A stretch of 64,000 bases of DNA. Source: Patescibacteria group bacterium. GTDB lineage: Bacteria; Patescibacteriota; Patescibacteriia; Patescibacteriales; UBA12465. Location: contig JAQUWT010000001.1 of NCBI GenBank assembly GCA_028692765.1, positions 15,695-79,694 of the forward strand. Reading direction: 5' to 3'. The translations under genes were made by a program, and so were the position numbers. This document shows positions 1,699-21,014 of the stretch, piece by piece. Under the pieces are notes generated by a model. It saw only the letters and a program-made list of their open reading frames with translations. It searched no databases and was not told the origin of the DNA. Numbering within the stretch: position 1 is the first letter of the stretch; every line of letters begins with the position of its first letter.

Positions 1699-1909
1699 AG
1701 AAAGAAAAAAAATTCCTGTTTGCGGAATCGTATTTTAATAAGTTTTACTATCAATTTCTTAATCTTATTATAGCAAAATTATTTGAGTAAAGCAAACTGG
1801 CTGGAAGCTTTATTTTTAGCTAAAAATAGTTATTATTAATTAATAATTTTAGCGTTTTAAAACTCTAAAAACTAATTATTTTATGTAGATTGTTTGGCAA
1901 ACAAAAAAA

Positions 1910-1936
1910 ACTTCCGTAATGTCTGGAAGTTTTTTT
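1910..1936 (-). terminator. Rho-independent terminator downstream of the hemerythrin-like gene
   Basis: Hairpin acttcc-N9-ggaagt flanked by an A-run upstream and a T-run downstream (aaaaaaaacttccgtaatgtctggaagttttttt). It reads as a terminator for the leftward transcript. Confidence 0.6.
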
Positions 1937-1944
1937 GAGATATT

Positions 1945-2361
1945 TTATTTAACGCCGTTGGCCTGGAGGAAGGGAACGTAGGCGCGATCGGTATTATTGA
2001 TATGCCAGGTCCACCAATTTTGAAGGAATTCAGATATTTCGAAAAAAATTGCCGGGTTCTTGTCTTGATTATAGCGCTGGCGCCATTCCTCTATTTTGGC
2101 CTTATACTGTTCATGAATTTTAATATGTTCATCCTTTTTTTCATAACCGAAAAGTTGAAAATATTTTTCTTCTGTGGAGAAATGGTAGATGGCGTAATCA
2201 GCCAATTCTTGGATTACATGGTCCATCTGATTGTTTTCCGTGTATTTTTTTTCATCAACCATGGCGTAGAGCTCATTAATGAGAGCAAGGATGCGTTGAT
2301 GTTGAGCGTCAATTTCGCTGATGCCCAATTTGAATTCGTCTTTCCATTCTATTAAAGGCAT
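1945..2361 (-). CDS. Hemerythrin-like metal-binding domain protein (bacteriohemerythrin)
   Basis: 138 aa. N-terminal motif WKDEFKLGISEIDAQHQRL plus downstream H/E/D ligand pattern typical of the hemerythrin HHE cation-binding domain. Confidence 0.8.
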   Translation of the reverse strand: MPLIEWKDEFKLGISEIDAQHQRILALINELYAMVDEKKYTENNQMDHVIQELADYAIYHFSTEEKYFQLFGYEKKDEHIKIHEQYKAKIEEWRQRYNQDKNPAIFFEISEFLQNWWTWHINNTDRAYVPFLQANGVK

Positions 2362-2461
2362 ATTTTTATTTTAGTTTTTAATACTAAAATAATACCATTT
2401 TTGTAAAATAGAGTCAAAAAATAAAAATGTTTTTTTCTAGTAATTGACAATTTTTTCCTTA

Positions 2462-2489
2462 TTGACAATTATAGTTTTTATGTTATATT
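2462..2489 (+). promoter_or_regulatory. Sigma70-type promoter (TTGACA-16 nt-TATATT); a second TTGACA box lies at 2444-2449
   Basis: Exact -35 hexamer at 2462-2467 and -10 TATATT at 2484-2489 with 16-nt spacing. The predicted transcription start is about 2496-2500. Confidence 0.55.
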
Positions 2490-2523
2490 GGTTTCTGTTG
2501 TTCATTCTAAATTGTAATAATTT

Positions 2524-2763
2524 ATGCGAAGAAAAAAGCAGAAAGAGACTACCAGCGTCTTTGAAATAGCTGGCAATTTGATAAAAGGTCTAAGAACAAA
2601 AAAGGTGGTCTTGCCATCAGTTGGCAGACCTAGTAACAAAAAACGCTGCCATGAATGCAGTACCTGGTATGATGACAATCGTACTGTGTGCCCAAATGCG
2701 CACATGCATCAGCCCGCCTATCGTCCGCCCATTGGCAGACATAGGGGCAATTTTGATTTTTAA
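2524..2763 (+). other. Short transcribed unit of uncertain nature: either a 79-aa basic zinc-ribbon-like miniprotein (CHEC...CPNAH) or a structured ncRNA
   Basis: Bracketed by the promoter at 2462-2489 and the terminator at 2784-2808. The ORF lacks an SD but starts ~25 nt from the predicted TSS. The 5' end cgaagaaaaaa can pair with the 3' end tttttacttcg, and there is an internal hairpin ggtcttgcca/tggcagacc. No conserved motif of RNase P, tmRNA, SRP or 6S RNA was recognised. Confidence 0.3.
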
Positions 2764-2783
2764 AATTTTTACTTCGTTGTTTG

Positions 2784-2808
2784 CCTTCCCCCAGGGGAAG
2801 GTTTTTTA
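2784..2808 (+). terminator. Rho-independent terminator
   Basis: Hairpin ccttcccc/ggggaagg followed by the T-run tttttt. Confidence 0.75.
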
Positions 2809-2864
2809 TTAAAGGCGTCATAAATATTTGGCAATTTTTTGCTTTTGCGCTATTATTTTCTTAT

Positions 2865-3794
2865 ATGTCAAAGATTTTAGTGACTGGCGGCGCCGGCTTC
2901 ATCGGTTCCACTTTAGTTGATAAATTAATTGATTTAGGTCATGAAGTTACCGTTTTGGATAACTTAATTTCCGGCTCCCGCGATTATCTTAATCCGCGGG
3001 CGGAGTTTTGGGAAATGGATATCCTGGATAATAGTCTACGGGAGCGTTTTCAGGCAGCTGCTTTTGAGTTGGTCTATCATCTGGCCGCCCAGATTGACGT
3101 GCGGAAATCGGTGGCCGACCCGGAATTTGATAATCAAGTTAATATTTTAGGCGGTTTGAATATCCTCCAAGCTTCTCAGGCGAGCGGGGTAAAGAAAGTC
3201 ATTTTTGCTTCTACGGGCGGCGCCATTTACGGCGAGGCGGAAGAAATTCCTACCAGCGAATACGCTCCGACTTATCCGCTTTCGCCTTATGGCATCAATA
3301 AGCTGGCTTTGGAAAAATACCTTAATTATTATTATCAGGTTTTTGGTTTAAACTATACGATTTTGCGTTTTGCCAATGTTTACGGACCGCGCCAGTACAA
3401 GGGCGGAGAAGCGGGGGTGATTGCGATTTTTACGGAGGCGATGGCTCACGATAAGCCTTGCATTCTTTACGGCGACGGCAAACAGACCCGCGATTTCGTT
3501 TATGTCGATGATGTGGTAGCGGCTTTAGTTTTAGCCGGTGATATTGATTGCCGCGGCGAGATTAATATCAGCACCGCTCAAGAAGTTGATATGTGGGCGA
3601 TGGTGGCGGCGATTGAAAGCGCTGCCGGCGCCAAATTGAAATTAGAATTAGCTCCGTCTAGAGCGGGGGAGCAGCGCCGCAGCGTCTTGCTCAATCGGCG
3701 GGCGCTGGAAACTTTGAATTGGCGGCCGCAGGTGGAATTTACTGAAGGCGTGCGCCGTACTTATGAGTGGGTAAAAAACAACGGTAAAAATTAG
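2865..3794 (+). CDS. NAD-dependent epimerase/dehydratase (UDP-glucose 4-epimerase-like short-chain dehydrogenase fold)
   Basis: MSKILVTGGAGFIGS Rossmann motif, and the Y in YGINK (YxxxK catalytic pair). The ORF-track start at 2781 is an upstream extension; the ATG at 2865 is the likely start. Confidence 0.85.
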   Translation: MSKILVTGGAGFIGSTLVDKLIDLGHEVTVLDNLISGSRDYLNPRAEFWEMDILDNSLRERFQAAAFELVYHLAAQIDVRKSVADPEFDNQVNILGGLNILQASQASGVKKVIFASTGGAIYGEAEEIPTSEYAPTYPLSPYGINKLALEKYLNYYYQVFGLNYTILRFANVYGPRQYKGGEAGVIAIFTEAMAHDKPCILYGDGKQTRDFVYVDDVVAALVLAGDIDCRGEINISTAQEVDMWAMVAAIESAAGAKLKLELAPSRAGEQRRSVLLNRRALETLNWRPQVEFTEGVRRTYEWVKNNGKN

Positions 3795-3824
3795 AGCCGG
3801 TTTTTATAATCTTCTTATATTCTT

Positions 3825-4553
3825 ATGAAAATATTTATTGCTAATTGGAAAATGCAGCTTAGCCCGGAAGAATCGGTGCGGACCGCCCGAAGTTTCGCGC
3901 GTGTTTTTAAAAATTACCAAGGCCAAGCGGTGCTGTGCCCGGATTTTCTTTCTTTGGCGGCCGTTTCAAAAATTTTAGCCAAGAGCCCCCTTGTCCTCGG
4001 TTCTCAGGATTTATCCGCCTTTGAACGCGGCGCCTATACCGGGGAAATTTCTCCTGTCGATTTGCAATCTTTAGGCGTAAAATATTCTTTAATCGGCCAT
4101 AGTGAGCGTCGCGCTTATCTTCAGGAATCAGATAAATTATTGGCGGCTAAGATTAAAGCGGCGGTTAGCAACAAGATTGTTCCGGTCCTCTGCGTCGGTG
4201 AAAACGCCTTAGAAAGAAAGCAGGGTAGGGCGATGGCGGTTATTAAAGCCCAGTTGAAAGGAGCCTTGCAGTCTTTGCCGACAGCGACTTTACGCTCTTT
4301 AATTATCGCCTATGAACCGGTGTGGGCTATCGGCACTGGACTTAATTGCGACCGTGAGCAAGCTTTGCGCGTCAAGGCGACTATTAATGAATGGTGCCGG
4401 CGCGGCGGTTTTAAGAAAATTCCCGTTTTATACGGTGGCAGCGTCAAGCCGGAAAACGCCGTTTCTTTCCTGGGTAATGACGGTTTTGACGGACTCTTAG
4501 TCGGCGGTGCCAGCCTTGAGGCCTCTAGTTTTTATCAGATTGCCGCGCTTTAA
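3825..4553 (+). CDS. tpiA: Triosephosphate isomerase
   Basis: NWKM, IGHSERR, AYEPVWAIGTG and YGGSV signature motifs. Confidence 0.9.
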   Translation: MKIFIANWKMQLSPEESVRTARSFARVFKNYQGQAVLCPDFLSLAAVSKILAKSPLVLGSQDLSAFERGAYTGEISPVDLQSLGVKYSLIGHSERRAYLQESDKLLAAKIKAAVSNKIVPVLCVGENALERKQGRAMAVIKAQLKGALQSLPTATLRSLIIAYEPVWAIGTGLNCDREQALRVKATINEWCRRGGFKKIPVLYGGSVKPENAVSFLGNDGFDGLLVGGASLEASSFYQIAAL

Positions 4554-4572
4554 TTTTTTTATCATTATTATT

Positions 4573-5385
4573 ATGCTCACCACCATTGCTTGGATTTTAG
4601 CTTCTCTATCTTTAGCCGCCATTATTTTTATTATCGTCCGCAAATTTCCCTCATTGGCGATTTTGAATGTAGACAATATTCCCGGAGAGAAAGAGGCAAA
4701 ATTTAAAGAGAAAATTATCCGCCAGCGAGTGGAGCGGGATTTTAATCGTCTGGGTACCGGCTTTGACCGCTTTCGCCGTCGCGTGGGTGGCATGATTAGC
4801 GGTTTTTTAAAGCGTCATTATCAGCTTTTAAGCAAGAAGCGCGATGATTTGCGCCGACAGAAGAAGCTAAGCTTTACGGAGAAGCGGGAAAAAATTTCGG
4901 CGTTATTCAATAAAGCGAAGGCGGCTATGTCTTTGGAAAGTTATGAAGAAGCGGAAAAGCATCTGATTGAAATCATCAGTCTTGATGCCAAGCGCTTGAG
5001 CGCATTTTTGGAATTGGCGGAAAGCTACCGTCTGCGCAAGAGTTTCCGAGAAGCGAAAGAAACCTTGGAGCATGCCTTGAAGCTGGCCCAGCAATTAAGC
5101 CGCGATCCGGAAATGCTTGAGGGAATAGTCCTGGCAGAAATCAGATTTTCTCTAGCCTGGGCTTGTTTTCAATTGGGCTTGCAAGCTGAAGCTTTGGAAT
5201 ATGGGCGCCAAGCCCTTGACGCCGAGCCTAATAATCCGCGCTACCTTGATTTAATTCTGGATTTAAGTATAATGAAAAAAGATAAAAAATCAGCGCTTGA
5301 CGCTTGGGAGAGATTGGCGGCAGTTAATCCGGAAAATAATAAGCTGCCGGAATTGCGCGCCAAGGTTGAGGAATTAGCTGATTAA
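4573..5385 (+). CDS. Membrane-anchored TPR-like repeat protein (hypothetical)
   Basis: N-terminal TM helix (LTTIAWILASLSLAAIIFII) followed by helical repeats with an A/L/E-rich TPR-like pattern. ATG at 4573; the ORF-track start at 4507 overlaps tpiA. Confidence 0.5.
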   Translation: MLTTIAWILASLSLAAIIFIIVRKFPSLAILNVDNIPGEKEAKFKEKIIRQRVERDFNRLGTGFDRFRRRVGGMISGFLKRHYQLLSKKRDDLRRQKKLSFTEKREKISALFNKAKAAMSLESYEEAEKHLIEIISLDAKRLSAFLELAESYRLRKSFREAKETLEHALKLAQQLSRDPEMLEGIVLAEIRFSLAWACFQLGLQAEALEYGRQALDAEPNNPRYLDLILDLSIMKKDKKSALDAWERLAAVNPENNKLPELRAKVEELAD

Positions 5386-5394
5386 GAAGATAAA

Positions 5395-5470
5395 GCCGTT
5401 TTAGCTCAGTTGGTAGAGCATCTCCATGGTAAGGAGAAGGTCTCGGGTTCAAGTCCCGAAAACGGCTCCA
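5395..5470 (+). tRNA. tRNA-Thr (anticodon GGT), CCA encoded
   Basis: Manual cloverleaf fold. Acceptor GCCGTTT/AAACGGC, D-arm GCTCAGTTGGTAGAGC, anticodon stem TCTCC/GGAGA with loop ATGGTAA, T-arm TCGGGTTCAAGTCCCGA, then TCCA. Confidence 0.85.
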
Positions 5471-5481
5471 GAAAAGAAAGA

Positions 5482-5509
5482 AGACTGCCTTTAAAGGCAG
5501 TCTTTTTTA
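5482..5509 (+). terminator. Rho-independent terminator after tRNA-Thr
   Basis: agactgcc-tttaaa-ggcagtct followed by tttttt. Confidence 0.75.
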
Positions 5510-5521
5510 TGGGTTCGTAAC

Positions 5522-5953
5522 TTATTTTTTAAAGTATTCAATCACAGCCTCGTCGCCGTGAAGGTCAGTGATGAATTCACCATGCTCGGCCATCTCCTCT
5601 TCAAAATAATGGACATCGCTTTCAAAGAAAAAAATTTTGATAGTTGGATTTTTTTCTTTGATTTTTTTGATTACATCAAGAAGAGCTTTTTCTGCACCAT
5701 CCCAATGCATTAGGATATCATCATAGTCCATGTTCGCAGGTAGGCAGAATAGCACATCGGCTTTTTCTGCTTTTTCCCAGAAATCTTCCCGGTCATCATT
5801 TATAAAGCCTCCGATAAATTCCCAACAGAGTTTTTTCCCGGCTAATTTTTCTGTCAGGTGGTGAATAGCGCCTCCGCGGCAAAAATAATGGTTGTTGTGG
5901 TTTTTTTCTGGATATTGATTATGCCAGAAGAGTACTCTAATTTCTTTTTCCAT
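5522..5953 (-). CDS. Hypothetical protein (143 aa)
   Basis: Clean ORF with a divergent AT-rich promoter region upstream (5954-6217). No family recognised. Confidence 0.5.
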   Translation of the reverse strand: MEKEIRVLFWHNQYPEKNHNNHYFCRGGAIHHLTEKLAGKKLCWEFIGGFINDDREDFWEKAEKADVLFCLPANMDYDDILMHWDGAEKALLDVIKKIKEKNPTIKIFFFESDVHYFEEEMAEHGEFITDLHGDEAVIEYFKK

Positions 5954-6217
5954 TTTAATGAACCTTTAAGTTAGTACTGAATTTTGCCTTATTATAGAAT
6001 AAAGATTTATTTATGTCAAGCTAAGTTTTTATGGTTATTTTGTGTAATTCTAGACAAATTATTGATAACTAAGTTGATTAAGTCTATGCTATTATTGACA
6101 TAATATTAAAAAAATGATATAATTTAGGGTCTAATAAGATAGGGTTCTATGCCTATCGATTAGATTGGCCTTTGAAAATTAAATAAAAACTAACATAAAA
6201 AGGGAGAACTTGGGTGC

Positions 6218-6883
6218 ATGAAAGAAGCCCGGTTATTGAAAATGGATTTAAAGAAAATCACATCAATCGGCGGGGTAATTCTTGGCCATGAATTGGTTGA
6301 GAAATTACTCGGCCTAGTATTTGAGGGCGTCCAGAAACATGGCGCCAAATTCATCCACTCTAACATCCTCGGTCTTGGGACCAACGATGAGGCCTTATTT
6401 AATTCCGCTATTGCTTATGCCATTTTTGGCTTGGGCGCTAATCCGGAAAAAATGATTATCGTTCTTGACGTCATTAACTCTTACGGCCGCCAGTCTAAGT
6501 CTAGAATCATACAGATTATAGGCAAGGATGAGCAGAGCGTGACCATTGAAGTCCCCGCCCTAAATGAAAATAAAGAGGTAATTACCGATAAAAAGGGAAA
6601 GCCACTTTTCAAAAAAGAGACCATCGTTGCCAATGTCCGGGGGGCTCAGACGTTACATTATTGGTCGACTTTGACCAAAGAGCAGGTAAAGACTGCCATT
6701 GAGGCTGGCAATATGCACAATCCCCTTGGCGATGCTGTTGCCAGGGCTATGTCTTCTGATAACATCAAGAGGTTTTTTGCCACAACTTATGATGCGACAA
6801 AAAATGGCTATGATAGTCTCGGTAGCGAATTGTTAAGAAGAGATAATCCAATAAGCCGTTGGGCTGACAAATTTCGTAAGTAA
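6218..6883 (+). CDS. Hypothetical protein (221 aa), first gene of an SD-bearing two-gene cassette
   Basis: Strong SD GGGAGA 10 nt upstream of the ATG, which is atypical for this genome. No family recognised. Confidence 0.55.
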   Translation: MKEARLLKMDLKKITSIGGVILGHELVEKLLGLVFEGVQKHGAKFIHSNILGLGTNDEALFNSAIAYAIFGLGANPEKMIIVLDVINSYGRQSKSRIIQIIGKDEQSVTIEVPALNENKEVITDKKGKPLFKKETIVANVRGAQTLHYWSTLTKEQVKTAIEAGNMHNPLGDAVARAMSSDNIKRFFATTYDATKNGYDSLGSELLRRDNPISRWADKFRK

Positions 6884-6903
6884 AATTTAAAGGAGGTAAA
6901 AAA

Positions 6904-8103
6904 ATGATAGCATTTATAGTTCCTATAGTTATCGTGGCCTTAGCAATCGGATTGATTGTTTCGCCAACTTTTCGCCAGGGAGTGGTCACAGTAGTCACTG
7001 ATGTAGTAACAATTGTTTTCGGTGTTACCAGGCAGTATGCCTTAATAGCCGGAGTAACAATTGCCGTGATGTTTTTCTGGATGTTTTTAGCCCTTATGAT
7101 TGGTTCCCCGATATTTTCGGGCTTAGTCTTTATAGCAGCAATTGCATTTTTCTTTGTCGTATGGCTGCCATTAGGGGCTGTTCTGAAAATTTTCGGTGTC
7201 AATAACGCCGTAGTTCCCGCATCAGTAAGGTCTTTTTTTGCCTGGATGGCCTTCGTTGGTTTCATGGCAATGATGACGCCCGATGTCTTTACCTTAAAGA
7301 CAACGTTAATTGCTTCTTTGGTCGCCATATTTATGGCGATGCTAACTTCCAAGTTTAATCTGCTTGAAAAGGTAGTCCTGCCACTCGTTGTCATTATGTG
7401 TTTGATTGGCGCTTGGAAATTAATTGCCCCAGACAGTTTCAGGGCGGTTGATCGTCACCGTTTAGCAATCGGCTCTTTATTCACCACTGCTAACGATCGT
7501 GGCTCCTTAAGAAAGGAGACCCGCGCCGCTTCTACCTTTGGCAAGCTTATTAAAGACGTGCCAGTTGTCTACATGGCTAATATGAATGGAGAAGAAATCA
7601 GTCAATTAACTGAAATTCAGGTTTCTTTGCCAAAAGGAACAATTGTCCTGCTATGCGACCAAAAAAAAGAAGTTAGTATTTTCCAGGGGCAATCATTTAT
7701 TGAGGTGAGACTCCCTAATAGCAATGGTTCTTTCGTTAATGGCCAGCGTTATTGGATTGAGTCTAATCTATTGGAAATTGGCACAATGGCCAGTTTAACT
7801 CCCGCCGAAACATCACGCGAGGAAAGACGGGTTGTCCGCGATACTGTTATATCTGTATCTTTCGGTCCCGGCACTCATCAGCTTCAGTTGAAGCCCGGCC
7901 AAATAGTAAGACTGATGACCACCCCATCAAAAGATGGGTGCGGCCTGCTTTCTATGTCTTCGCCAACCTATGCCTATCAGTTTAAATTTGATGGGCACAA
8001 TTGGGAGGCTGACGGGCCGGCTGTCCAATATCCGTACATGAGGTATCCCACCTGCTTGCTTCGCTCGCAGAGCGGGGATATCTTAACTATAAAAGTGCTG
8101 TAA
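6904..8103 (+). CDS. Hypothetical integral membrane protein (N-terminal ~180 aa polytopic, C-terminal ~200 aa soluble domain)
   Basis: Perfect SD AGGAGG 7 nt upstream. Multiple hydrophobic helices (IAFIVPIVIVALAIGLIV, IAGVTIAVMFFWMFLALMIGSPIFSGLVFIAAIAFFFVVWLPL, and others). Confidence 0.55.
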   Translation: MIAFIVPIVIVALAIGLIVSPTFRQGVVTVVTDVVTIVFGVTRQYALIAGVTIAVMFFWMFLALMIGSPIFSGLVFIAAIAFFFVVWLPLGAVLKIFGVNNAVVPASVRSFFAWMAFVGFMAMMTPDVFTLKTTLIASLVAIFMAMLTSKFNLLEKVVLPLVVIMCLIGAWKLIAPDSFRAVDRHRLAIGSLFTTANDRGSLRKETRAASTFGKLIKDVPVVYMANMNGEEISQLTEIQVSLPKGTIVLLCDQKKEVSIFQGQSFIEVRLPNSNGSFVNGQRYWIESNLLEIGTMASLTPAETSREERRVVRDTVISVSFGPGTHQLQLKPGQIVRLMTTPSKDGCGLLSMSSPTYAYQFKFDGHNWEADGPAVQYPYMRYPTCLLRSQSGDILTIKVL

Positions 8104-12130: not shown

Positions 12131-12283
12131 GGTTCTTTGGCGAAGGGATATTTGTAAAAATCAATTTTCTGTGTATAATAAACCGCATACTGAAAGAGTG
12201 CTTGTCAATTAGATATAAAGATAGTAAGATATTAAAAGAAATTTTTTATTTTTATCAAAAGATTGCGGATTTTAGTTAAAATT

Positions 12284-12354
12284 GCGGGATTGGTGTAGTG
12301 GTAACATGCGACTCTCCAAAAGTTGAGACGGGGGTTCGATTCCCTCATCCCGTG
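12284..12354 (+). tRNA. tRNA-Trp (anticodon CCA), CCA not encoded
   Basis: Acceptor GCGGGAT/ATCCCGT, anticodon stem CGACT/AGTTG with loop CTCCAAA, T-arm GGGGGTTCGATTCCCTC. Preceded by a promoter-like TTGTAA-16-TATAAT near 12150-12185. Confidence 0.8.
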
Positions 12355-12357
12355 CGT
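12343..12357 (+). repeat. attL-like copy of a 15-nt direct repeat (cctcatcccgtgcgt) covering the last 12 nt of tRNA-Trp plus 3 nt
   Basis: Identical 15-mer found again at 20389-20403. Confidence 0.7.
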
Positions 12358-12542
12358 GGACATTTCTGTGTAAAATGACCCGAAAACCGAGCATTTTTGA
12401 GTTCTAAACCCACAAAGGTGCTAGTCACCTTGGTGGGAATCGGAACAGCACAGAAAGCAATATTCTAGCAAAAGCACCTCGAAGGGGGTGTTTTTGCTAT
12501 GGGAACGGAGATTAAAATATGGTATTATAATATTGTAATATT

Positions 12543-13325
12543 ATGCCAAATTTTAATGATTTAAATTTAGAAAACTGGAAAGATTCTGATATCTGGACAG
12601 ATAGCCTTTGGATTATTCAGGAACGTGATAAATCGGGGAAACACGATGGTTTTTATCATGGAAATTTTGTGCCACAGATTCCTCGTCAACTTATAAAAAG
12701 ATATACCAAAGAGGGGGATGTCGTTTTTGATCCATTTTTAGGAAGTGGCACAACTGCTTATGAATGCGAAACTCTAAAAAGACATTTTATTGGGATTGAA
12801 ATACAGCCTAGTTTAGTAAGGCACGTTCAAACAAAGCTGGACAGTAAGAAAAATTTTTTTGAGATCTTGGCGGCTGATAGTACTGAGGAAAAAACATTTA
12901 TTAAGGTTAGTGAATCGCTAAAAAAGCATCGTCGCACTAAAGTCCAATTGGCAATACTGCACCCGCCATATGCCAACATAATTAAATTTAGCGATAATAA
13001 GAAAGATTTATCAAATGCCAAGGATTTAAGGCAGTTTCTTGACGAATTTTCAAGTGTAGTTAAAAATACTTTAACCATCCTAGAAAAGGGAAGGTATATG
13101 GCTATTGTTATGGGTGATAAATATGAACAGGGTAAGTGGATTCCTTTAGGATTTTATTGTATGAATGAAGCTTATAAGCTTGGATTAACTTTAAAGAGTG
13201 TTATAGTTAAGAATATGGAAGGCAACAGAGCAAAGCAGAATAAAGAGGGTATTTGGCGTTATAGAGCCCTGGCAAGTGATTATTATATTTTTAAACACGA
13301 ATATATATTAATTTTCAAATATTAG
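12543..13325 (+). CDS. DNA methyltransferase (N6-adenine/N4-cytosine amino-MTase), permuted motif order
   Basis: HGNFVPQIPRQLIKRYTKEGDVVFDPFLGSGTT matches the beta-class HPAxFP...DPFxGSGTT SAM-binding block, but here it is N-terminal. The PPY-type motif (LAILHPPYANI) lies downstream. AT-rich. Confidence 0.7.
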   Translation: MPNFNDLNLENWKDSDIWTDSLWIIQERDKSGKHDGFYHGNFVPQIPRQLIKRYTKEGDVVFDPFLGSGTTAYECETLKRHFIGIEIQPSLVRHVQTKLDSKKNFFEILAADSTEEKTFIKVSESLKKHRRTKVQLAILHPPYANIIKFSDNKKDLSNAKDLRQFLDEFSSVVKNTLTILEKGRYMAIVMGDKYEQGKWIPLGFYCMNEAYKLGLTLKSVIVKNMEGNRAKQNKEGIWRYRALASDYYIFKHEYILIFKY

Positions 13326-13326
13326 T

Positions 13327-14007
13327 ATGACAAATAATGAATTATTTCTAGAACTTGCGAAACCAAACAAAGACGGAGTAAGTCGTTGGGTTCCAGTTTC
13401 AGAATTTATTGGTAAATATAAAAAACTTCAGCTCGGAAATGGTGGAAGTTGGTGTCGAGCTAGCTCGAGTTTGGCGAAGAAATATATCGTTGAATTTGAT
13501 AAAAGCAAAACGGCCGGAAATTCAATCGATAGAGTTCGCTTAATTGGTTTTAATAAAAAAAAGATATTAAACCAAAATATTAGAAAGGATATAAAAGATT
13601 TTTATAAAGTGCAAAATTGTGTAATGCTTGGGGTTAATGGTAGCTCTGAGAATACAAAAATTGAAATTGATCATAAAGACGGTAGAAAAGAAGATCATAG
13701 ACTTTCAAATTTATCAGAACAACAAATCACTGATTTTCAGCCACTTTCAAAAGCGGCAAATGATATTAAAAGACAGATTTGTAAAAGATGTAAGGAAACC
13801 AATAAGCGTTGGAATGCTAAAAACATCAAGGGGAATCCATTTGATTTTTACGCAGGAGACGAAAATTATTCTGAAGAATTAGGATGCAAAGGTTGTTACC
13901 AGTATGATCCGGTGGAGTATAGGAAAGTTGTGGTTAGAAAGGTTGGCGAACTATCAGCCAGGGAAGCAGTTGATAAAGTTTTTAAAAAATTATATCCAGA
14001 AGGATAA
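13327..14007 (+). CDS. HNH-family endonuclease, putative cognate restriction enzyme
   Basis: EIDHKDGRKEDHRLSNL...ICKRCKETNKRWN matches the HNH pattern D-H...N...N-L...C-x2-C...N. One-nt gap after the MTase stop, so translationally coupled. Confidence 0.5.
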   Translation: MTNNELFLELAKPNKDGVSRWVPVSEFIGKYKKLQLGNGGSWCRASSSLAKKYIVEFDKSKTAGNSIDRVRLIGFNKKKILNQNIRKDIKDFYKVQNCVMLGVNGSSENTKIEIDHKDGRKEDHRLSNLSEQQITDFQPLSKAANDIKRQICKRCKETNKRWNAKNIKGNPFDFYAGDENYSEELGCKGCYQYDPVEYRKVVVRKVGELSAREAVDKVFKKLYPEG

Positions 14008-14016
14008 TGATAAAGT

Positions 14017-15699
14017 ATGAATAACTCTCCTCAAAAATCTGCAATAAATTCTCAAATTAACGATTTGATTAGTTTGAAATATTTAGGTTTAAATAAAGGA
14101 TTGCAAAGAGGTGCGGCATTTAACGAATTATCTGCCTCAATAATATGCGAGTCTGATATTCAGTCTGAAGACATTGTGGATGGTGATGATGACAATGGTC
14201 TCGATGTTGTTTTTATAAACTCTAATGACCAGGGAATTTTTATAAACATATTAAATTGTAAATCATCAGAAACTGAAAAATTTTCCGAGGTTGAGTTGGG
14301 TAAAATTAAAAATGGTTTATTTTATACATTTGAGGCTGATAAAAAAAAATATAAAAAACTAGAAAATCAAAACCTTTTAGCAAAAATAGAAGAAATAAGA
14401 GAAGACAAAGAAAATATCGTGGAGGTTAACTGTTTTTATTGTGCTTTTAGCGGTGATAATAATAAAGATAAAAAAATAAAAAGAGAAGTGGAGGAAATTC
14501 AAAATTATTTTAGCGAATATTTTAAAACAGTTTATCCAAATGCAAAATTTAATTTAAGTTTAATAAATGCAGAAGATTTATTCTACATAGATGCTCAGAG
14601 AAAACAGAGCCTTAGAAATGAAAAAATTTCTATACCGTATTATGGTGATAAAGTTATTTCAAATGAAGTAGAAACAGAAAAAATTGATGGAAGATTAGCA
14701 ACAGTAAGAGGAGAGGAAATTGCAAAGTTGGTTGAAAAATACGGAGAGTCTTTATTTGAAAAAAATGTTAGAGGTTGGATGAGCTTCAGAAAATATAATA
14801 AAGATATTTTATATTCCTGTTCCTCTGATAATGAATCGGAGCTTTTTTGGTTTTTAAATAATGGATTAACTATAGTATGTGATAAATGTGTTCCAGAGCC
14901 AGATAAGAAAATTTTAAAGTTAACAGCACCACAAATAATCAACGGACAACAAACCGCCAGAGTTTTAGAAAAAGCTTATAAGGATGGTATTTTAAAAGAA
15001 AATGTTAAAGTTTTATTAAAAATTTATGTAACTACTGCTCCTGATATAATAATTAAAGTTGCGAAAGCGACAAATAGCCAGCTTGTAGTCAAATCTCGCG
15101 ACTTAGTTTCTAATAATACTGAACAACTAGCTATTCAAAATGAATTTATAAGAAATAAATATGGTTATGAGAGACAGCGTGGTGAAAAAAAATCTAAGAC
15201 TGCTGACATAAAAGAAAATTTTAATAATTTTTTTGTAGCTCAATCAGTTCTATCTACTTTATTTGGGCAACCAAGCTTTGCAAAGAAAAAACAGGAGGAT
15301 AAGATTTTTGGAGAACCAAATTATTCCAAGATATTTAGAAATAATTCTGTGGATGAAATATTGACGGTTACTTTGTTGTGTAATTTCTGTTTAGGTGAAG
15401 GGCTTAAGCTGGAAAGAAAAAATATATCTGATCAAATAAAGTATTTTGCCTTTTTTCATATTGCCAGAATAATATGGTTTAATCTAAAAAATAAGGAAAA
15501 AATGAAAAATGATGAAATAATATCAATTATTCAAAATCATAAAAACAAGAAAAAATTAAATAATATATACACTAAAGCTTCTAATATATTATTAGGTGTA
15601 TATAAAAAATATAATAAGAAAGAAAAAATTATAAGTATTGGGCATTTGTTTTCTAGGTTGGAAGTTGATAAAGATATAAATAAATTATTATTTAAATGA
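14017..15699 (+). CDS. Large (560 aa) AIPR-like abortive-infection/defence protein
   Basis: Central IINGQQT motif, as I recall from AIPR proteins, which are often embedded in R-M operons; it is also distantly like the DGQQR motif of ParB/DUF262. K/N-rich, about 28% GC. Assignment is from memory only. Confidence 0.4.
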   Translation: MNNSPQKSAINSQINDLISLKYLGLNKGLQRGAAFNELSASIICESDIQSEDIVDGDDDNGLDVVFINSNDQGIFINILNCKSSETEKFSEVELGKIKNGLFYTFEADKKKYKKLENQNLLAKIEEIREDKENIVEVNCFYCAFSGDNNKDKKIKREVEEIQNYFSEYFKTVYPNAKFNLSLINAEDLFYIDAQRKQSLRNEKISIPYYGDKVISNEVETEKIDGRLATVRGEEIAKLVEKYGESLFEKNVRGWMSFRKYNKDILYSCSSDNESELFWFLNNGLTIVCDKCVPEPDKKILKLTAPQIINGQQTARVLEKAYKDGILKENVKVLLKIYVTTAPDIIIKVAKATNSQLVVKSRDLVSNNTEQLAIQNEFIRNKYGYERQRGEKKSKTADIKENFNNFFVAQSVLSTLFGQPSFAKKKQEDKIFGEPNYSKIFRNNSVDEILTVTLLCNFCLGEGLKLERKNISDQIKYFAFFHIARIIWFNLKNKEKMKNDEIISIIQNHKNKKKLNNIYTKASNILLGVYKKYNKKEKIISIGHLFSRLEVDKDINKLLFK

Positions 15700-16757
15700 A
15701 TTACATAGGAAGTAAATTATCATTATTGGAGTTTTTAGAGGAATCAATTAATAAAGTAGTTAAAAAAGACTGCAATGTTTTTTGTGATCTTTTTGCTGGA
15801 ACGGGGGCGGTCGGGTCATATTTTAAAAGAAAAGGATATAAAGTTATATCTAATGATATCCAATATTATAGCTATGTTTTAAATAGACACTATATTAAAA
15901 ATCATCAACCACTTGAATTTAAAAAATTATTTGATGTTGTTAATGGCTTAGAAAAATCATCCGTTTCTGATAGAAGTATTTTAGTCGTAGAGTATTTGAA
16001 TAATTTAAAAGGTCAAAAGGGATTTATTTTTAATAATTATTGTTTGGGTGGAACTAAAAATAAAGCAGAACAAAGAATGTATTTTTCTGATGAAAATGGG
16101 GCTAAATGTGATGCAATTAGAAAAAAAATAGAGGAATGGAATAGTGCTAGTTTAATTAATGGAAATGAATATTACTTTTTGTTAGCCAGTTTAGTTGAGT
16201 CAATAGATAAATATGCAAATACAGCTTCAGTTTATGGAGCATTTCTTAAGCAACTAAAGAAATCAGCTCAAAAATTAATGGTGCTTCAACCGGCGGAGTT
16301 AATTATTAATGAACAAGACCATGAGGTATACAATGAAGATATTAATTCTGTTATCGGAAAAATAAAGGGTGATATTCTTTACTTAGATCCGCCGTATAAT
16401 CAAAGGCAGTATGCAACCAACTATCATGTATTAGAGACTATAGCCAAATATGACAAGCCCAAAGTGCATGGCAAAACTGGGCTAAGAGATTATTCTAAAC
16501 AAAAATCCTTATATTGTTCAAGAAATCAAGTTAAAAAATCATTTAAAGATTTGATTGATAACGCGAAAGTTAAATATATATTTTTAAGCTATAATAACGA
16601 GGGGCTGATGAGCGCTGATGATATTAAAGAAATTATGGGCGCGCGCGGTAAGTATGGTGTTTTCACGAAAGAATATTCTAGATTTAAAGCTGACAAGAAT
16701 AGAGAATATAAGGCTGAAAAAACCGTTGAATATTTACATTATGTAGTATGCCGTTAA
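15696..16757 (+). CDS. Dam-like (MT-A70/D12 alpha-class) N6-adenine DNA methyltransferase
   Basis: MNYIGSKLSLL (Dam/MboI-type N-terminus), motif I DLFAGTGAV, motif IV LYLDPPY. ATGA overlap with the upstream gene. Confidence 0.85.
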   Translation: MNYIGSKLSLLEFLEESINKVVKKDCNVFCDLFAGTGAVGSYFKRKGYKVISNDIQYYSYVLNRHYIKNHQPLEFKKLFDVVNGLEKSSVSDRSILVVEYLNNLKGQKGFIFNNYCLGGTKNKAEQRMYFSDENGAKCDAIRKKIEEWNSASLINGNEYYFLLASLVESIDKYANTASVYGAFLKQLKKSAQKLMVLQPAELIINEQDHEVYNEDINSVIGKIKGDILYLDPPYNQRQYATNYHVLETIAKYDKPKVHGKTGLRDYSKQKSLYCSRNQVKKSFKDLIDNAKVKYIFLSYNNEGLMSADDIKEIMGARGKYGVFTKEYSRFKADKNREYKAEKTVEYLHYVVCR

Positions 16758-18469
16758 TAAATAAAATTTCAATAAAAAATTTTAAATGTTTTAGAAATAA
16801 AATTGATATTCCATTAAATCAAGGGAGTTATTTAATTGGTGCTAATAACGCAGGAAAAACAGCCGTACTTAATGCTATTAATTTCTTTTTTGATTCTTCT
16901 CTTTTTTTTGATGAGTCATTTTTAAACAGGACAAACTATTTGGCAAAAAAATCAGGATATAATAAGTCGGAAATTACTCTTAGTTTCGATTTAAGTTATA
17001 TATCTAATAGTTCACTTAAAAATAAGTTAGTAAAATTTTTTTCTTCCGAAATGGCAACAATTAAGAAGGTTATAATATTTTCTCCAGATTCTGGCAGTAT
17101 TAACTTGAGTTATGATATAAAGGGTAATAATTATACTTATGATGATTTAAATGAAAATGTTAAAAAAATGATTAGTAGTGTAAAGATTGTATATATACAC
17201 CCGCAAGAAGGTCGTGAATTGTTATTGAATGCTCAAAATAAACTACGTACGAGATTATTAGCAAATTGGGGGAGAAATGCTAAGCTTTCTCATAGTATCA
17301 AGGATCTGCAAGATAAATGGAGTGTTTTAAGAAAACAGGCCAGAGAATATCTTTCTGGATCTTTGTCAAATAGTCTACAAAATATGTGGCCAGGTGGATC
17401 TGCTTATATAGATTTACCAAAAGAAATTTCGGATATTGTGGCTATATCCGATATCACTTTTAAAGGTAATATTTCTTTGCCAGATATTAATTTAACAGCG
17501 CAAGGAACTGGCGCACAAACTACCATTTTATATTTAACTCATTATTTATTAGATAGCGATCGATCTTTACACAGAGGCGAATATCATCCAATTTGGCTAT
17601 TAGAGGAGCCGGAGTCATTTCTTCATGCTGATTTAATAGCAAAATTTGCATCTCAGCTAAATTCAGAATCTTGGATGAGCAATATACAGGTTGTGGTTTC
17701 TACGCATTCACCTATTTTACTTTCAGTAAGTAGAATGGGTAAGAATTTAGTTTCTTGGAGTTTGCTTGATAATTACGAACCACAGATATCAAAGAATGTT
17801 ATAGATTGGAGCCATGAAGAAATTTTTAATGTTGGCAAAAAAATGGGCGATCCAAATTTCTCAGTATATTTTTCCGTTTCACAAAATGGTCCTATTGTAT
17901 TTTTAGAAGACAAAAAAGATATTACAATAGATAGATTTAAAAAGGCCGGAATTTCCATTACTAGTGGGTTGGGCGGTGTTTCTGAGGTTGTTAGACATAT
18001 AAGTGTATTGATCTCAAGTCCTAGATTGTCGTCTAGCAAAATATACTATATAGTTGATGGCGATCGCGGCTTTAATAATTTTGTTAATTTTATTGATGGC
18101 GACCCCGTTAAGTCTATTGGGGGATTAAATAAGTTTCAATTAAAAGATTTAAATGATGTATATTTATTATCACTTCCAAAAAATAGAGCTATAGAAGAAA
18201 TGTTTGATGAGTATGAACCCTATTTGTTATCTTTAATTAATCAAATATGGGATCCGCATACCTGGAATTTTAGGCAAAAAATTCCTAGTGTTTTGTCAAC
18301 TATCTGCGCCTCTTCTAAGAAAAAAAATATAAATTCACTTGGCAGTGCTCAAAATGCTATAAAAAATTCTGATGATGTTAAATATATGTTTTGGAAAAAA
18401 GTTGAAAAAGAGAATTTAAGTTTTAGTAAAGTATTTATTTCTAATTTGGTAGCTATTCTAAATGATTAA
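16748..18469 (+). CDS. OLD/GajA-like nuclease: ABC-type ATPase fused to a C-terminal Toprim-like domain
   Basis: N-terminal ISIKNFKCF...GANNAGKT (Walker A), WLLEEPESFLHADL (Walker B/D-loop), STHSP (H-loop). C-terminal VFLEDKKD...YYIVDGDRGF fits the Toprim E...DxD pattern. Overlaps the MTase by 10 nt. Confidence 0.6.
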   Translation: MPLINKISIKNFKCFRNKIDIPLNQGSYLIGANNAGKTAVLNAINFFFDSSLFFDESFLNRTNYLAKKSGYNKSEITLSFDLSYISNSSLKNKLVKFFSSEMATIKKVIIFSPDSGSINLSYDIKGNNYTYDDLNENVKKMISSVKIVYIHPQEGRELLLNAQNKLRTRLLANWGRNAKLSHSIKDLQDKWSVLRKQAREYLSGSLSNSLQNMWPGGSAYIDLPKEISDIVAISDITFKGNISLPDINLTAQGTGAQTTILYLTHYLLDSDRSLHRGEYHPIWLLEEPESFLHADLIAKFASQLNSESWMSNIQVVVSTHSPILLSVSRMGKNLVSWSLLDNYEPQISKNVIDWSHEEIFNVGKKMGDPNFSVYFSVSQNGPIVFLEDKKDITIDRFKKAGISITSGLGGVSEVVRHISVLISSPRLSSSKIYYIVDGDRGFNNFVNFIDGDPVKSIGGLNKFQLKDLNDVYLLSLPKNRAIEEMFDEYEPYLLSLINQIWDPHTWNFRQKIPSVLSTICASSKKKNINSLGSAQNAIKNSDDVKYMFWKKVEKENLSFSKVFISNLVAILND

Positions 18470-18549
18470 TTTTATAGTTTAATATTCAGGTACAAAAATA
18501 TCAGTCCGCGCCTTCGGGCTGATATTTATTTTAACTTTATTATCTTTTT

Positions 18550-19098
18550 TTATTCCTCAAACACCAGGCTATCGATAATCGTCGGCATTGATGCCAAGGG
18601 AGCGGTAATCACGAATATATTGCTATCTTTGGAAAAAATGATGATTTGCGGGTCGGGAAAGTCTTCGCCATTGTTTGCGACTTCATGCGCAGAGATGCCG
18701 CTTTGCCCGGCAATGTCGATGTTTTCGTCTTTAAGATATCGACTGGATTTTAATTTTTTATTTTCTGTTTCCAGCCAAGATTCCGCATCGGGAAATTGTT
18801 GTTTGGCAAAAACTTGGATGCTTATACCCGGTCCACCTCCTTGAGAAAAGACAACGCCGTTATTTTCCAAGGAAATGACATCCAGATTGCCGGGGTAGGA
18901 TAATCTATATTTAAGAGGCCTATTAGTATAGGTTTTTAATTTTATTTCTCCCACGTTCTCCGCTTGGCTTTTTGTTTGATTATAGTAAGCAATTTGCCGG
19001 CATTTGCTTTGGATAAGGAGAATTGCGGTCATTAGAGCCAGTACGATGATGGCGCTGCCGGCAACGATTATTTTTTGATTGTAAGTATTTTTAATCAT
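18550..19098 (-). CDS. Hypothetical membrane-anchored protein (182 aa)
   Basis: N-terminal TM helix IIVAGSAIIVLALMTAILLI. No family recognised. Confidence 0.5.
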   Translation of the reverse strand: MIKNTYNQKIIVAGSAIIVLALMTAILLIQSKCRQIAYYNQTKSQAENVGEIKLKTYTNRPLKYRLSYPGNLDVISLENNGVVFSQGGGPGISIQVFAKQQFPDAESWLETENKKLKSSRYLKDENIDIAGQSGISAHEVANNGEDFPDPQIIIFSKDSNIFVITAPLASMPTIIDSLVFEE

Positions 19099-19343
19099 AT
19101 AAATTAAGATGCTTTTATATTATAGCATAATGGCATAACATTTGTTTAAAAAATAAATAGAATTAATTAACGATATATAATCGTATAAAGCGGCGGGGAA
19201 GCTCCAGAGATTTGCCGACAGGCAAATGTCGCGGCGGATGAGCCGATTAGTGTCCTAATTTTAGAGTAATTTTTTATATATTCTCAAACAGGATTAGAAT
19301 ATAAGCGCTTATTTTAGTATAATGATGATATAGAGCTACATTT

Positions 19344-20339
19344 ATGAAAATAAAAGACATCAATCAAGGCGTCAGAAAAGCGGCCGCCGAAACCGGCTTT
19401 AAAATCGGTAAGGAAATTTATCGGGGAACTTATTACACGGAAGGCAATTTGAGAAATATTATTTATGACGGTTTTTATAAAAACAAGCCGGCCGTATTGA
19501 AATTTTATGATGATCCCCGAATTACGGATGAAGCGGCCTCGCTGAAAGAGTTTTTAAAAAATAATAAAAGCGTAATTTTGACGGCGCCGAAACTATACAG
19601 AAGCAAAGTTCTTTCGGCTCATTCGGGGTGGATGATTGTCGAGAAAATACCCGACAGTTATCATAAATATGAAATTCCATTGGATAAGATTGAGCGGGAA
19701 GAATTTTTGAAAATATTTTTGGAATACAGAAAGAATTTTTCTCTTAAGCCGGGCAGGAAATTATTTTTAACCGAAAAGCTTTCGTCTGATAATTTTTATA
19801 TTTTTAGAATAAGCAGGTGGTTGGAATTGGCGCAGAATAAAGAGGCCGACAGGCTGATGAACGGCAAGCGCAATCTTCTCGATGAAGATTTTTTAAAGAT
19901 GCTTGCGCCGGCTTTATCGAAGATAAGAGAGGAATGCAAAAACATCAAGATGATTTGGTGCCACGGCCACTTCAAGCCGTCTGAAATTTTTACCGACCGG
20001 GCAAGGACTAAGTATTATTTGACCGATTTTGCGCACACCGCCATGTTTCCCGAAGGATATGAACTCGCCTTTATGATCTGGTCCGATTATTTAATGGCGG
20101 ATGATAAGTGGAAGATGCCGTATCGGCACTGGAAGAAGGGCCTTGATGCTTGGATTATGGATGTCGAAAAAATAGCCAAGGAATTGGGATTTAATAATTA
20201 TAAAAGGTTAATTAGAGTTAGCTTGATAGAGAGAGTCTTGGGGACGATATTGGCTGACATTACCGCCTCGGATAGGCTGGAGCAAGAAAAAGAAAGGGGA
20301 ATCAGCCTAATGACGAGGCTTTTAAAAGATTTATTGTAG
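19344..20339 (+). CDS. Phosphotransferase (APH/kinase-like fold) family protein, divergent catalytic loop
   Basis: HGHFKPSEIF aligns with the HGDxxxxN catalytic loop, and YLTDFAHT aligns with the DFG/DFE metal-binding motif. D to H and N to E substitutions suggest altered or lost kinase activity. Confidence 0.4.
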   Translation: MKIKDINQGVRKAAAETGFKIGKEIYRGTYYTEGNLRNIIYDGFYKNKPAVLKFYDDPRITDEAASLKEFLKNNKSVILTAPKLYRSKVLSAHSGWMIVEKIPDSYHKYEIPLDKIEREEFLKIFLEYRKNFSLKPGRKLFLTEKLSSDNFYIFRISRWLELAQNKEADRLMNGKRNLLDEDFLKMLAPALSKIREECKNIKMIWCHGHFKPSEIFTDRARTKYYLTDFAHTAMFPEGYELAFMIWSDYLMADDKWKMPYRHWKKGLDAWIMDVEKIAKELGFNNYKRLIRVSLIERVLGTILADITASDRLEQEKERGISLMTRLLKDLL

Positions 20340-20388
20340 CTGGGCGATTATAATATTATTTTATCATATAAATAATGAGGCGAAACTT

Positions 20389-20403
20389 CCTCATCCCGTG
20401 CGT
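20389..20403 (+). repeat. attR-like copy of the tRNA-Trp 3'-end direct repeat (cctcatcccgtgcgt)
   Basis: Exact 15/15 match to 12343-12357, or 16/17 with one flanking mismatch. Immediately followed by a terminator. Confidence 0.7.
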
Positions 20404-20410
20404 AATAAAA

Positions 20411-20433
20411 AACCAGATTTCTCTGGTTTTTTT
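20411..20433 (+). terminator. Rho-independent terminator
   Basis: aaccaga-tttc-tctggtt followed by ttttt. Confidence 0.7.
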
Positions 20434-20453
20434 GTGTTTAGCGATTCTTATCT

Positions 20454-21014
20454 TTACCTATTGCAAAATGCAAATCGTCTTAAGGTCTTCCTTTTTACAA
20501 ATGAGCCTCCGTTTCCAGAGGAAAAGATGCGACCCATTATAATTTCATTGAGCGCTAGGATAATATAATTGTATCCCGTCTTTGTTACCCTTTCTTCTAA
20601 AGTTTTGGCAGTATCTTCCGGTCTTATAAGTACCGGAATTTGAATAATGCCAGAACCGCGATTTAGTTTATTGACAAAGTGCATTGATATAGCGCTTTGA
20701 TCAATTTCTCCGCGTTTATAAGCGGCAATAATTTCTTTATAAATTTTTGATCCTTGCAAATTTTTATCATTAATCCATGGGAACGGTCCGTGACATATAT
20801 TGATAATCCTTCCTTCTTCCGATTCCGCGATTGGCTTTGGCCAATCTGCATAGATAATATAGTCTGGCTGAAATTTTGTAATTATATTTTGATACTCTTC
20901 AGTATTATTTGGTTCCATAAAATATATGAAAGGAATTTTTAAAGATTGAGCTCTTTGAAAAATTTCGCCGTTATGGTAGTCAAAGACGACCCCTACAACT
21001 TTGGCTTTAATCAT
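20454..21014 (-). CDS. Formyltransferase domain protein (PurN / methionyl-tRNA formyltransferase N-domain-like)
   Basis: INICHGPFPW...SMHFVNKLNRGSGIIQIPVLIRPEDTAKTLEERV aligns with the formyl_trans_N core (N..H..D catalytic region). Confidence 0.6.
   Translation of the reverse strand: MIKAKVVGVVFDYHNGEIFQRAQSLKIPFIYFMEPNNTEEYQNIITKFQPDYIIYADWPKPIAESEEGRIINICHGPFPWINDKNLQGSKIYKEIIAAYKRGEIDQSAISMHFVNKLNRGSGIIQIPVLIRPEDTAKTLEERVTKTGYNYIILALNEIIMGRIFSSGNGGSFVKRKTLRRFAFCNR

Follow-up and report, generated by a model that had tools for sequence, protein, structure and literature searches.

A probable composite genomic island without a recombinase gene, bounded by a repeat of the tRNA-Trp 3' end, in a Falkowbacteria-like Patescibacteria genome

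Results

A repeat-bounded segment at the 3' end of tRNA-Trp

We analyzed a 64-kb stretch of DNA from a Falkowbacteria-like Patescibacteria genome (contig JAQUWT010000001.1; below, the window, to which all coordinates without a locus prefix refer), focusing on the segment 12358-20403 that follows the tRNA-Trp gene. This segment probably represents a composite, repeat-bounded genomic island that is located at the 3' end of tRNA-Trp and has lost its recombinase. The island combines an apparently recent 6-kb low-GC defence cassette with 1.9 kb of probably older Patescibacteria-type DNA at its distal end.

The tRNA-Trp (CCA) gene, which would have been the attachment target, is encoded on the forward strand at 12284-12354 (Rfam, 62 bits; ARAGORN places the end at 12355). 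Its final 12 nt and the following 3 nt (CGT) form the 15-mer CCTCATCCCGTGCGT. As stated in a preliminary description of this DNA, the 15-mer has two exact occurrences in the window, at 12343-12357 and at 20389-20403 (both on the forward strand). A third copy is absent from the window when up to two mismatches are allowed, and shuffled sequence gave a mean of 0.08 matches. The left copy, the putative attL core, places the start of the island (12358) directly at the end of the tRNA (12354), and the right copy, the putative attR core, would be the displaced 3' end of tRNA-Trp.

The second copy is directly followed by a terminator-like hairpin (20407-20432, forward strand), as had also been described. 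It is homologous to the terminators found directly 3' of tRNA-Trp in relatives, and the alignment with these native terminators reached a best score of 44 (L006; related loci are numbered with the prefix L), with a shuffled maximum of 26. A native-type terminator behind the second 15-mer is what integration into the tRNA predicts, since the original 3' end would be displaced to the far side together with its terminator. The right junction was reproduced in an independent assembly (Logan SRR22315505).

The preliminary description had further characterized the first five inner genes as AT-rich and rich in lysine and asparagine, and the last two as host-like, and the composition analysis confirmed both aspects. 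The GC content of 12543-18469 is 29.9%, compared to 43.6% upstream and 45.9% downstream. The GC content at third codon positions (GC3) of the five genes in this region is 0.19-0.29, corresponding to z = -3.3 to -4.9 relative to the 48 other genes of the window (mean 0.49, standard deviation 0.06), and the summed lysine, asparagine, and isoleucine content of their products is 0.25-0.32 versus 0.18. The two distal genes at 18550-19098 (reverse strand) and 19344-20339 (forward strand) have host-like GC3 values of 0.43 and 0.49, and the deviating composition is thus a property of 12543-18469 and not of 18550-20339. The intergenic gaps between the repeats do not exceed 245 nt.

In agreement with the earlier view that the island lacks an integrase, none of the seven open reading frames (ORFs) between the repeats matched a recombinase family (Pfam, PADLOC, NCBIfam). 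Likewise, no recombinase or transposase family was matched by the ~55 window ORFs of at least 130 aa, and neither a motif scan nor iterative profile searches seeded with Xer and serine recombinases gave a match in the window. No large serine recombinase was detected beside attL, where islands of the ssrA or staphylococcal cassette chromosome (SCC) type carry it. As there is no recombinase among the ORFs of the island or the window, we class the island as an integrase-less remnant that resembles a cis-mobilizable element (CIME) and not as an autonomous element.

Occupancy of the tRNA-Trp site in related genomes

A search with a 23-mer of the tRNA 3' end returned 99 loci from GTDB species genomes, many of them from Falkowbacteria, Moraniibacteria, and other Patescibacteria, with about a third of the records labelled Gammaproteobacteria. 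With further loci that were fetched later, ~120 loci were compared overall. The order of the genes on the upstream side (Fpg, L33, AI-2E transporter, rubrerythrin, and tRNA-Trp) is widely kept in the related loci, and in most of the 99 GTDB loci tRNA-Trp is directly followed by a terminator. In the close relatives L032, L049, and L095, the genes of the window's right flank, which encode a formyltransferase-like protein, a 167-aa protein, an IMPDH-like protein, and a short-chain dehydrogenase/reductase (SDR), are found 1-3 kb from the tRNA. Homologues of the cargo were not found at any related locus fetched (homologues of the distal phosphotransferase are treated below).

The nearest relative found is a metagenome locus (L102) that is 92% identical over 4.2 kb upstream, with a similarity that continues through 140 nt past the tRNA. 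This homology stops at 12497, and from 12498 onward the DNA is wholly different, as the site in L102 contains other cargo. The tRNA-terminator layout of the relatives, the divergence from L102 at 12498, and the native-type terminator at the right end support the earlier proposal of an insertion at the 3' end of tRNA-Trp. As a refinement of this proposal, the island is composite, and DNA unique to this genome begins at about 12498.

Serine recombinases at tRNA-Trp in relatives

Recombinase genes that are absent from the window are present at the tRNA-Trp of relatives. A large serine recombinase is encoded directly downstream of tRNA-Trp on the opposite strand in L012 (580 aa, oriented 1619-3361), L094 (613 aa, oriented 3585-5426), and L118 (3121-4818), the latter being a viral contig from IMG/VR in which the recombinase is accompanied by genes of the Zot-like and Rep-like kind. 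In these three loci, the recombinase reading frame runs on into the complement of the tRNA (…HGMRESNPR…), and integration would therefore alter the C-terminus of the recombinase. L073 contains a truncated serine recombinase 100 nt after the tRNA. A serine recombinase of ~450 aa, followed by phage-like genes, is encoded beyond defence cargo at a distance of 4.7 kb from the tRNA in L099 and L111 and of 5.4 kb in L115 and L116. L115 is a complete example of a serine-recombinase island, in which 15.6 kb separate the tRNA from a decayed fragment of tRNA-Trp with a terminator, and the recombinase gene lies within this interval. The ~450-aa family is very abundant in Patescibacteria, and the two types of serine recombinase at the site, of ~450 aa (L099) and ~600 aa (L094/L118), look unrelated.

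Together with the small prophages, the diversity-generating retroelement (DGR), the GIY-YIG inserts, and the restriction-modification (R-M) systems that are found at this position in relatives, the large serine recombinases point to tRNA-Trp as a lineage-wide hotspot. As to other targets, the viral contig L119 encodes a relative of the ~450-aa recombinase (6595-7869, 56% identity) that converges on a tRNA-Asn (12193-12265) 4.3 kb away, and the same architecture may therefore serve at other tRNAs.

The right end and the E modules

Directly upstream of the right repeat, at 20374-20388 on the forward strand, lies the element-side right-arm motif AATGAGGCGAAACTT, which together with CCTCAT forms the palindrome ATGAGG N8 CCTCAT. 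The motif corresponds to the tail of a module that occurs downstream of tRNA-Trp in several relatives and that we term the E module. The first 12 bases, AATGAGGCGAAA (20374-20385), are the E tail of L049 and L070, and over the stretch AATGAGGCGAAACTTCCTCATCCCGTGC (20374-20401), 26 of 28 positions agree with the final 28 nt of the L049 E module (E = 1e-5). The right repeat is thus immediately preceded by a conserved element-side motif, as in serine-recombinase islands. The repeat had been described as a classic att core. It forms the tip of this longer right-end motif, and the recombinases found at the site in relatives are large serine recombinases and not the tyrosine integrases that such a description implies.

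The E module comprises ~170 nt downstream of tRNA-Trp. It starts at its 5' end with an inverted T-arm copy (GGGAATCGAAC), continues with several hairpins, and ends in ATTCCCTCATCCCGTGC and a terminator; its 3' end is identical to that of tRNA-Trp. Its predicted fold is multi-stemmed, with 20 of 29 predicted pairs retained through changes on both sides, and G-U pairs are better tolerated on the tRNA-sense strand than on the opposite strand. We found E modules at L046:5220-5432, L049:2350-2550, L059:4802-5019, L070:1642-2133, L089:1519-4789, L069:7186-7390, and L113:582-798, where they occur singly, in tandem, or flanking gene cassettes, including tandem units of E and core of ~208 nt in L070 and a threefold occurrence in L089/L101. 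The E module has no Rfam match and is a candidate for a new RNA or a recombination scaffold. Overall, 16 of the 99 loci have copies of the tRNA 3' end downstream of tRNA-Trp, at distances from 13 nt to 3.1 kb and in part as tandem arrays (L070 and L089/L101).

L113 has no tRNA, but a complete E module is joined there to a core similar to tRNA-Trp and to a trailer resembling the left module described below, 8.5 kb from a serine-recombinase gene. This is the arrangement predicted for an attP site or for a junction of stacked elements. In the window, no full E copy was detected with an E-module profile, and just the tail with its last 12 bases is kept. The spacer that precedes the phosphotransferase gene contains a hairpin (19206-19232) similar to hairpin 1 of the E modules of L049 and L070 at 23 of 27 bases, a similarity that is non-significant by itself (E = 2.5).

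A second class of tRNA-Trp remnants is found in L018, L055, and L088, where it lies 64-74 nt after the tRNA, and at L115:1191, where it marks the far end of the 15.6-kb serine-recombinase island. These remnants consist of an anticodon-loop-like segment, a GC-rich hairpin, the 3' half of the T-loop, and the 3' strand of the acceptor stem.

The left end

The first 140 nt behind the tRNA (12358-12497, forward strand) form a conserved non-coding module that is common to L102, L084, L085, L082, L009, and L087, with L087 sharing just the first 28 nt; in addition, L099 keeps a fragment. The module contains a 41-nt trailer, a degenerate copy of the T-arm and 3' end of the tRNA (12399-12421), an inverted T-arm copy, GGGAATCGGAACAG, at 12435-12448, and a hairpin at 12468-12497. 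Beyond it, the relatives contain different cargo wherever sequence exists, including an XRE regulator in L085 and L009 and, in L085, also a type I R-M methylase gene. As 12358-12497 is common to at least six genomes with other cargo, the DNA that is unique to the genome analyzed here starts at about 12498.

The module of the window is 91-100% identical to that of L084 and L085, in contrast to the spacer between rubrerythrin and tRNA, which is unalignable (~55%). This suggests lateral spread or strong constraint. The predicted fold of the module is stable (z = -6.3). Rfam searches of this region and of 13 related loci recognized only tRNAs and nothing in the left module, and the five sequences that could be compared with regard to a small RNA (sRNA) showed little covariation outside the terminator, with the outer stem broken in L082 and L009. 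Another possible reading is a pile-up of T-arm copies, direct and inverted, that have decayed, and the candidate identities of the module are an sRNA, an att arm, and a set of stacked att remnants. Scans of viral contigs for the module found none.

The tRNA-Trp gene itself is mosaic in comparison to L102. Nucleotides 19-49 (12302-12332), which comprise the D-loop, anticodon arm, and variable loop, differ at ~12 positions, whereas the flanks are ~95% identical. The differing segment is identical or nearly identical to the allele of the distant genomes L084, L085, L087, and L094, and the first 49 nt of the gene have 98% identity to L084 and to L085. The mosaic suggests a repeated replacement of tRNA segments by incoming elements.

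A further observation concerns L085, where a ~5-kb insert (oriented downstream 1250-6470) interrupts the gene for the type I R-M methylase. Encoded on the insert are a serine recombinase and a ribosomal-protection protein of the tet(M)/tet(O) kind. The insert could be a real acquisition or could result from a chimeric assembly.

Proposed origin of the island and alternative explanations

The island could have originated as follows. A site-specific recombinase, probably a large serine recombinase in analogy to those of the relatives, would have joined the attP site of an element to the T-loop and 3' part of tRNA-Trp, with attP bringing a replacement copy of the tRNA 3' end. Such an integration would leave an intact tRNA at attL and displace the original 3' end with its terminator by ~8 kb to attR. 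The recombinase gene and the remaining element DNA would have been lost later, and the tRNA-proximal cargo would then have been replaced or extended by the low-GC defence cassette, the two distal genes being older. In its present form, the island would not be capable of self-movement and could be mobilized only by a recombinase provided from elsewhere or by an adjacent incoming element that acts on both att sites. This is consistent with the suggestion in the preliminary description that the island is either decayed and immobilized or mobilized in trans.

Several aspects weigh against this scenario. First, the comparison across species, with tRNA-Trp followed by a terminator and no cargo, would agree with an originally empty site, but neither an empty site in the same species nor a circular junction was found, and a metagenome scan for the occupied or empty junction gave three loci. 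The mobility of the island is for this reason something that we infer. Second, the left limit as defined by the repeat (12358) disagrees with the limit as defined by comparison (12498), as the 140 nt in between are shared with genomes that contain other cargo. Third, serine recombinases require just a 2-bp crossover, and a repeat of this length makes sense only with an attP that itself contains the tRNA end, as we infer for this island. Fourth, no internal att copy was found between the AT-rich cassette and the older genes. Finally, a homologue of the distal phosphotransferase gene is located 2.5 kb downstream of tRNA-Trp in L110 without a repeat behind it. Because of this homologue near tRNA-Trp and the host-like composition, the distal genes might belong to the ancestral neighbourhood and not to imported DNA. 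In L107, by comparison, a homologue of the same gene is followed, as in the window, by a tRNA-Trp 3' fragment and a terminator, with no tRNA in that 16.7-kb locus.

The alternative that survives best, although we consider it rather unlikely, is that of a variable hotspot between two RNA genes. The second 15-mer would then be the 3' terminus of a decayed gene for an E-type structured RNA whose natural end resembles that of tRNA-Trp, the two 15-mers would not be one attL/attR pair, and the cargo would have arrived by homologous recombination across the conserved flanks or by other routes. The compensated multi-stem fold of the E module and its G-U tolerance on the tRNA-sense strand, as expected for an RNA, are in line with this alternative, as are the tandem E and core units, the left module that is common to genomes with different cargo, and the phosphotransferase homologue near tRNA-Trp in L110. 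However, the window contains no E body beyond the last 12 bases, the second copy has a terminator of the native tRNA-Trp kind behind it, and in L113 the E module and core are found at the far end of a serine-recombinase element. Moreover, within the tRNA just the first 18 bases and the 3' end match the closest relative, L102, at the nucleotide level, which is short for homologous recombination.

An improbable alternative is a classical P4-like island whose tyrosine-integrase gene was deleted. Islands of tyrosine integrases are typically recognized by a directly repeated tRNA 3' end, and the palindrome formed by the right arm and the core would also suit such an origin. Yet no tyrosine recombinase was detected beside tRNA-Trp in the window or in the first 102 related loci by a motif scan and an iterative search from one seed profile, which distant members could escape, and serine recombinases are present at the tRNA in six loci. 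The only tyrosine-type match was an Xer-like gene in L002 that is located away from the tRNA, and the called genes of the later-fetched loci contained no member of the tyrosine-recombinase families.

That the 15-mer recurred by chance and that the AT-rich genes are merely a low-GC patch of the host is hardly credible: one of 100 shuffles did reach two matches at two mismatches, but the match extends to 26 of 28 bases in comparison to an independent family of tRNA-Trp-linked modules, a native-type terminator stands behind the copy, the site is variable in relatives, and the GC3 z-score is as low as -4.9.

Returning to the composite island with a lost recombinase, a more far-reaching and decidedly speculative view would be that the tRNA-Trp 3' flank of Falkowbacteria-like Patescibacteria is a dedicated cassette-docking platform. 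The 140-nt left module and the ~170-nt E module with its terminal mimic of the tRNA-Trp 3' end would be functional RNAs or recombination scaffolds that are used by large serine recombinases specific to the candidate phyla radiation (CPR) to stack and exchange defence cassettes, DGRs, and small prophages. If true, the site would functionally be nearer to an integron or an SCC array than to a graveyard of old integrations.

Cargo genes

The AT-rich cassette is a defence island that consists of five co-directional genes (12543-18469, forward strand), namely an R-M pair of the NlaIII/IceA type, an AIPR/AbiU gene, a Dam-like methylase gene, and a gene for an OLD-family ATPase. The predicted function of the present island is defence against phage and foreign DNA. 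The first gene (12543-13325; PF01555, E = 2e-27; PADLOC MTase_II, E = 1e-96) codes for an N6/N4-type DNA methyltransferase, the partner of the IceA/NlaIII-family restriction endonuclease that is encoded 1 nt downstream (13327-14007; PF05315 ICEA, E = 8e-119, covering 218 of 218 profile positions). As in the iceA1-hpyIM and NlaIII R-M systems, a full-length ICEA-family endonuclease gene directly follows an adenine methylase gene, and CATG would be the putative specificity. The third gene encodes an AbiU-type abortive-infection protein with an AIPR domain (14017-15699; PF10592, E = 9e-32; PADLOC AbiU, E = 9e-49, 482 of 537 positions).

The fourth gene, for the D12-class (Dam-like) adenine methyltransferase (15696-16757; PF02086, E = 3e-51; PADLOC MTase_II, E = 2e-116), overlaps by 10 nt with the fifth gene (16748-18469), whose product is an OLD-family AAA_15 ATPase (AAA_15, E = 8e-22; PADLOC Old, E = 6e-28) and, judged from these matches, probably an ATP-dependent nuclease. 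Its C-terminal 240 aa, where the Toprim nuclease domain of OLD-family nucleases would be expected, have no Pfam or NCBIfam match. A GajB or AriB gene was not found next to the ATPase gene, which has the Dam-like methylase gene as neighbour. Without such a partner and with the unmatched C-terminus, we did not class the ATPase as part of a Gabija or PARIS system. The cassette ends with a terminator hairpin (18496-18527, forward strand), and no repeats were found that flank the AT-rich cassette itself.

With respect to the origin of the cassette, the nearest exact matches of the R-M pair are solely on short metagenomic contigs. Exact-protein look-ups for flanking and cargo genes gave just short contigs of the same strain and no alternative context, and the comparison of the cassette DNA to plasmid and phage collections gave only short methylase matches. 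The OLD-like ATPase has homologues in several phyla, none of them with more than 57% identity, so that no donor can be named.

The two distal genes encode a 182-aa membrane-anchored protein with a weak PsbP_2 match (18550-19098, reverse strand) and a phosphotransferase resembling APH and choline kinases (19344-20339, forward strand), which is common in Patescibacteria, with more than 200 homologues of 45-76% identity. A 36-nt repeat with 75% identity (19077-19112 and 20346-20381) brackets the phosphotransferase gene, and we judged it to be a probable chance similarity in AT-rich DNA.

Comparison with known systems

The closest published parallel is given by the ssrA islands of Dehalococcoides. 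In these islands, a 20-bp repeat derived from the tRNA-like gene's 3' end forms the boundaries, with the crossover in the T-loop. A conserved 15-bp motif is located just upstream of each repeat, and the islands occur in tandem, some of them with low GC content (McMurdie et al., 2011; PMC3146451). A CcrB-like large serine recombinase is encoded beside attL on the reverse strand, and the authors interpreted 15 islands that lack the integration module as cis-mobilizable elements (McMurdie et al., 2011). The island described here matches this integrase-less class, and L012, L094, L118, and L073 match the integrase-bearing class. The systems differ in that the target is tmRNA there and tRNA-Trp in a Patescibacterium here, and in that the Dehalococcoides islands carry reductive dehalogenases and the present island carries anti-phage defence genes. 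In addition, the relatives analyzed here have two unrelated-looking types of serine recombinase, of ~450 and ~600 aa, and a structured module of ~150 nt precedes their repeats in place of the 15-bp motif.

SCC and pseudo-SCC cassettes, as well as the CIMEs of streptococci, are the same kind of object as the island in the window. SCC cassettes are located at the 3' end of rlmH (orfX) in staphylococci, are flanked by direct repeats of ~15 bp, frequently contain R-M genes, and are moved by Ccr large serine recombinases, and cassettes without ccr are retained in tandem arrays and remain open to mobilization in trans. The location at the end of a conserved gene, the ~15-bp repeats, and the recombinase-less form are shared with the present island, whereas the SCC target is a protein gene and not a tRNA, and host phylum and cargo differ. 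The CIMEs that are related to streptococcal elements of the ICESt1/ICESt3 type have attL and attR flanks, lack recombination and transfer genes, and would move by accretion with an incoming element (concept as cited in PMC3146451). The island in the window also has putative att flanks and no recombination genes, but the streptococcal systems depend on tyrosine integrases and conjugation, and neither conjugation genes nor a partner element were seen here.

In a literature search of incomplete coverage, we found no earlier description of such islands in Patescibacteria. The genomes of these organisms are tiny, and little is known about how defence genes are acquired and exchanged among them. The familiar solution of a tRNA-anchored, repeat-bounded island without a recombinase probably extends to Patescibacteria. 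The comparison supplies concrete att sequences and recombinase candidates, which can be used in experiments and to find prophages and islands in genome bins of CPR bacteria. While the island itself will not surprise specialists for mobile elements, the pattern in the relatives, with structured E modules, recombinase genes that read into the tRNA, and stacked cassettes, is more intriguing.

Further observations at tRNA-Trp and in the window

Two further kinds of inserts at the tRNA-Trp of relatives deserve mention. L007 and L014 have inserts 300-350 nt after tRNA-Trp whose sole coding content is a GIY-YIG protein of ~85 aa. These inserts lie between the tRNA and a repeated copy of its 3' portion (40 nt in L007), and they look like mini-elements of the homing-endonuclease type. 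In L069, the 3.1 kb between tRNA-Trp and the E module contain a DGR that encodes a 355-aa reverse transcriptase, an accessory protein of the four-helix-bundle type, and a target protein. The variable repeat at the C-terminus of the target protein has a matching adenine-rich template repeat.

Within the window, the formyltransferase-like gene just outside the island (20454-21014, reverse strand) has an unusually low GC content of 0.35, and the N-terminus of its product is ~34 aa shorter than in the homologues of L032 and L016, so that the gene may be decaying or may itself have been imported. Two more low-GC patches elsewhere in the window (38282-38947 and 44414-44980; 0.35-0.38), the ORFs of which have no Pfam match, may be other small acquisitions.

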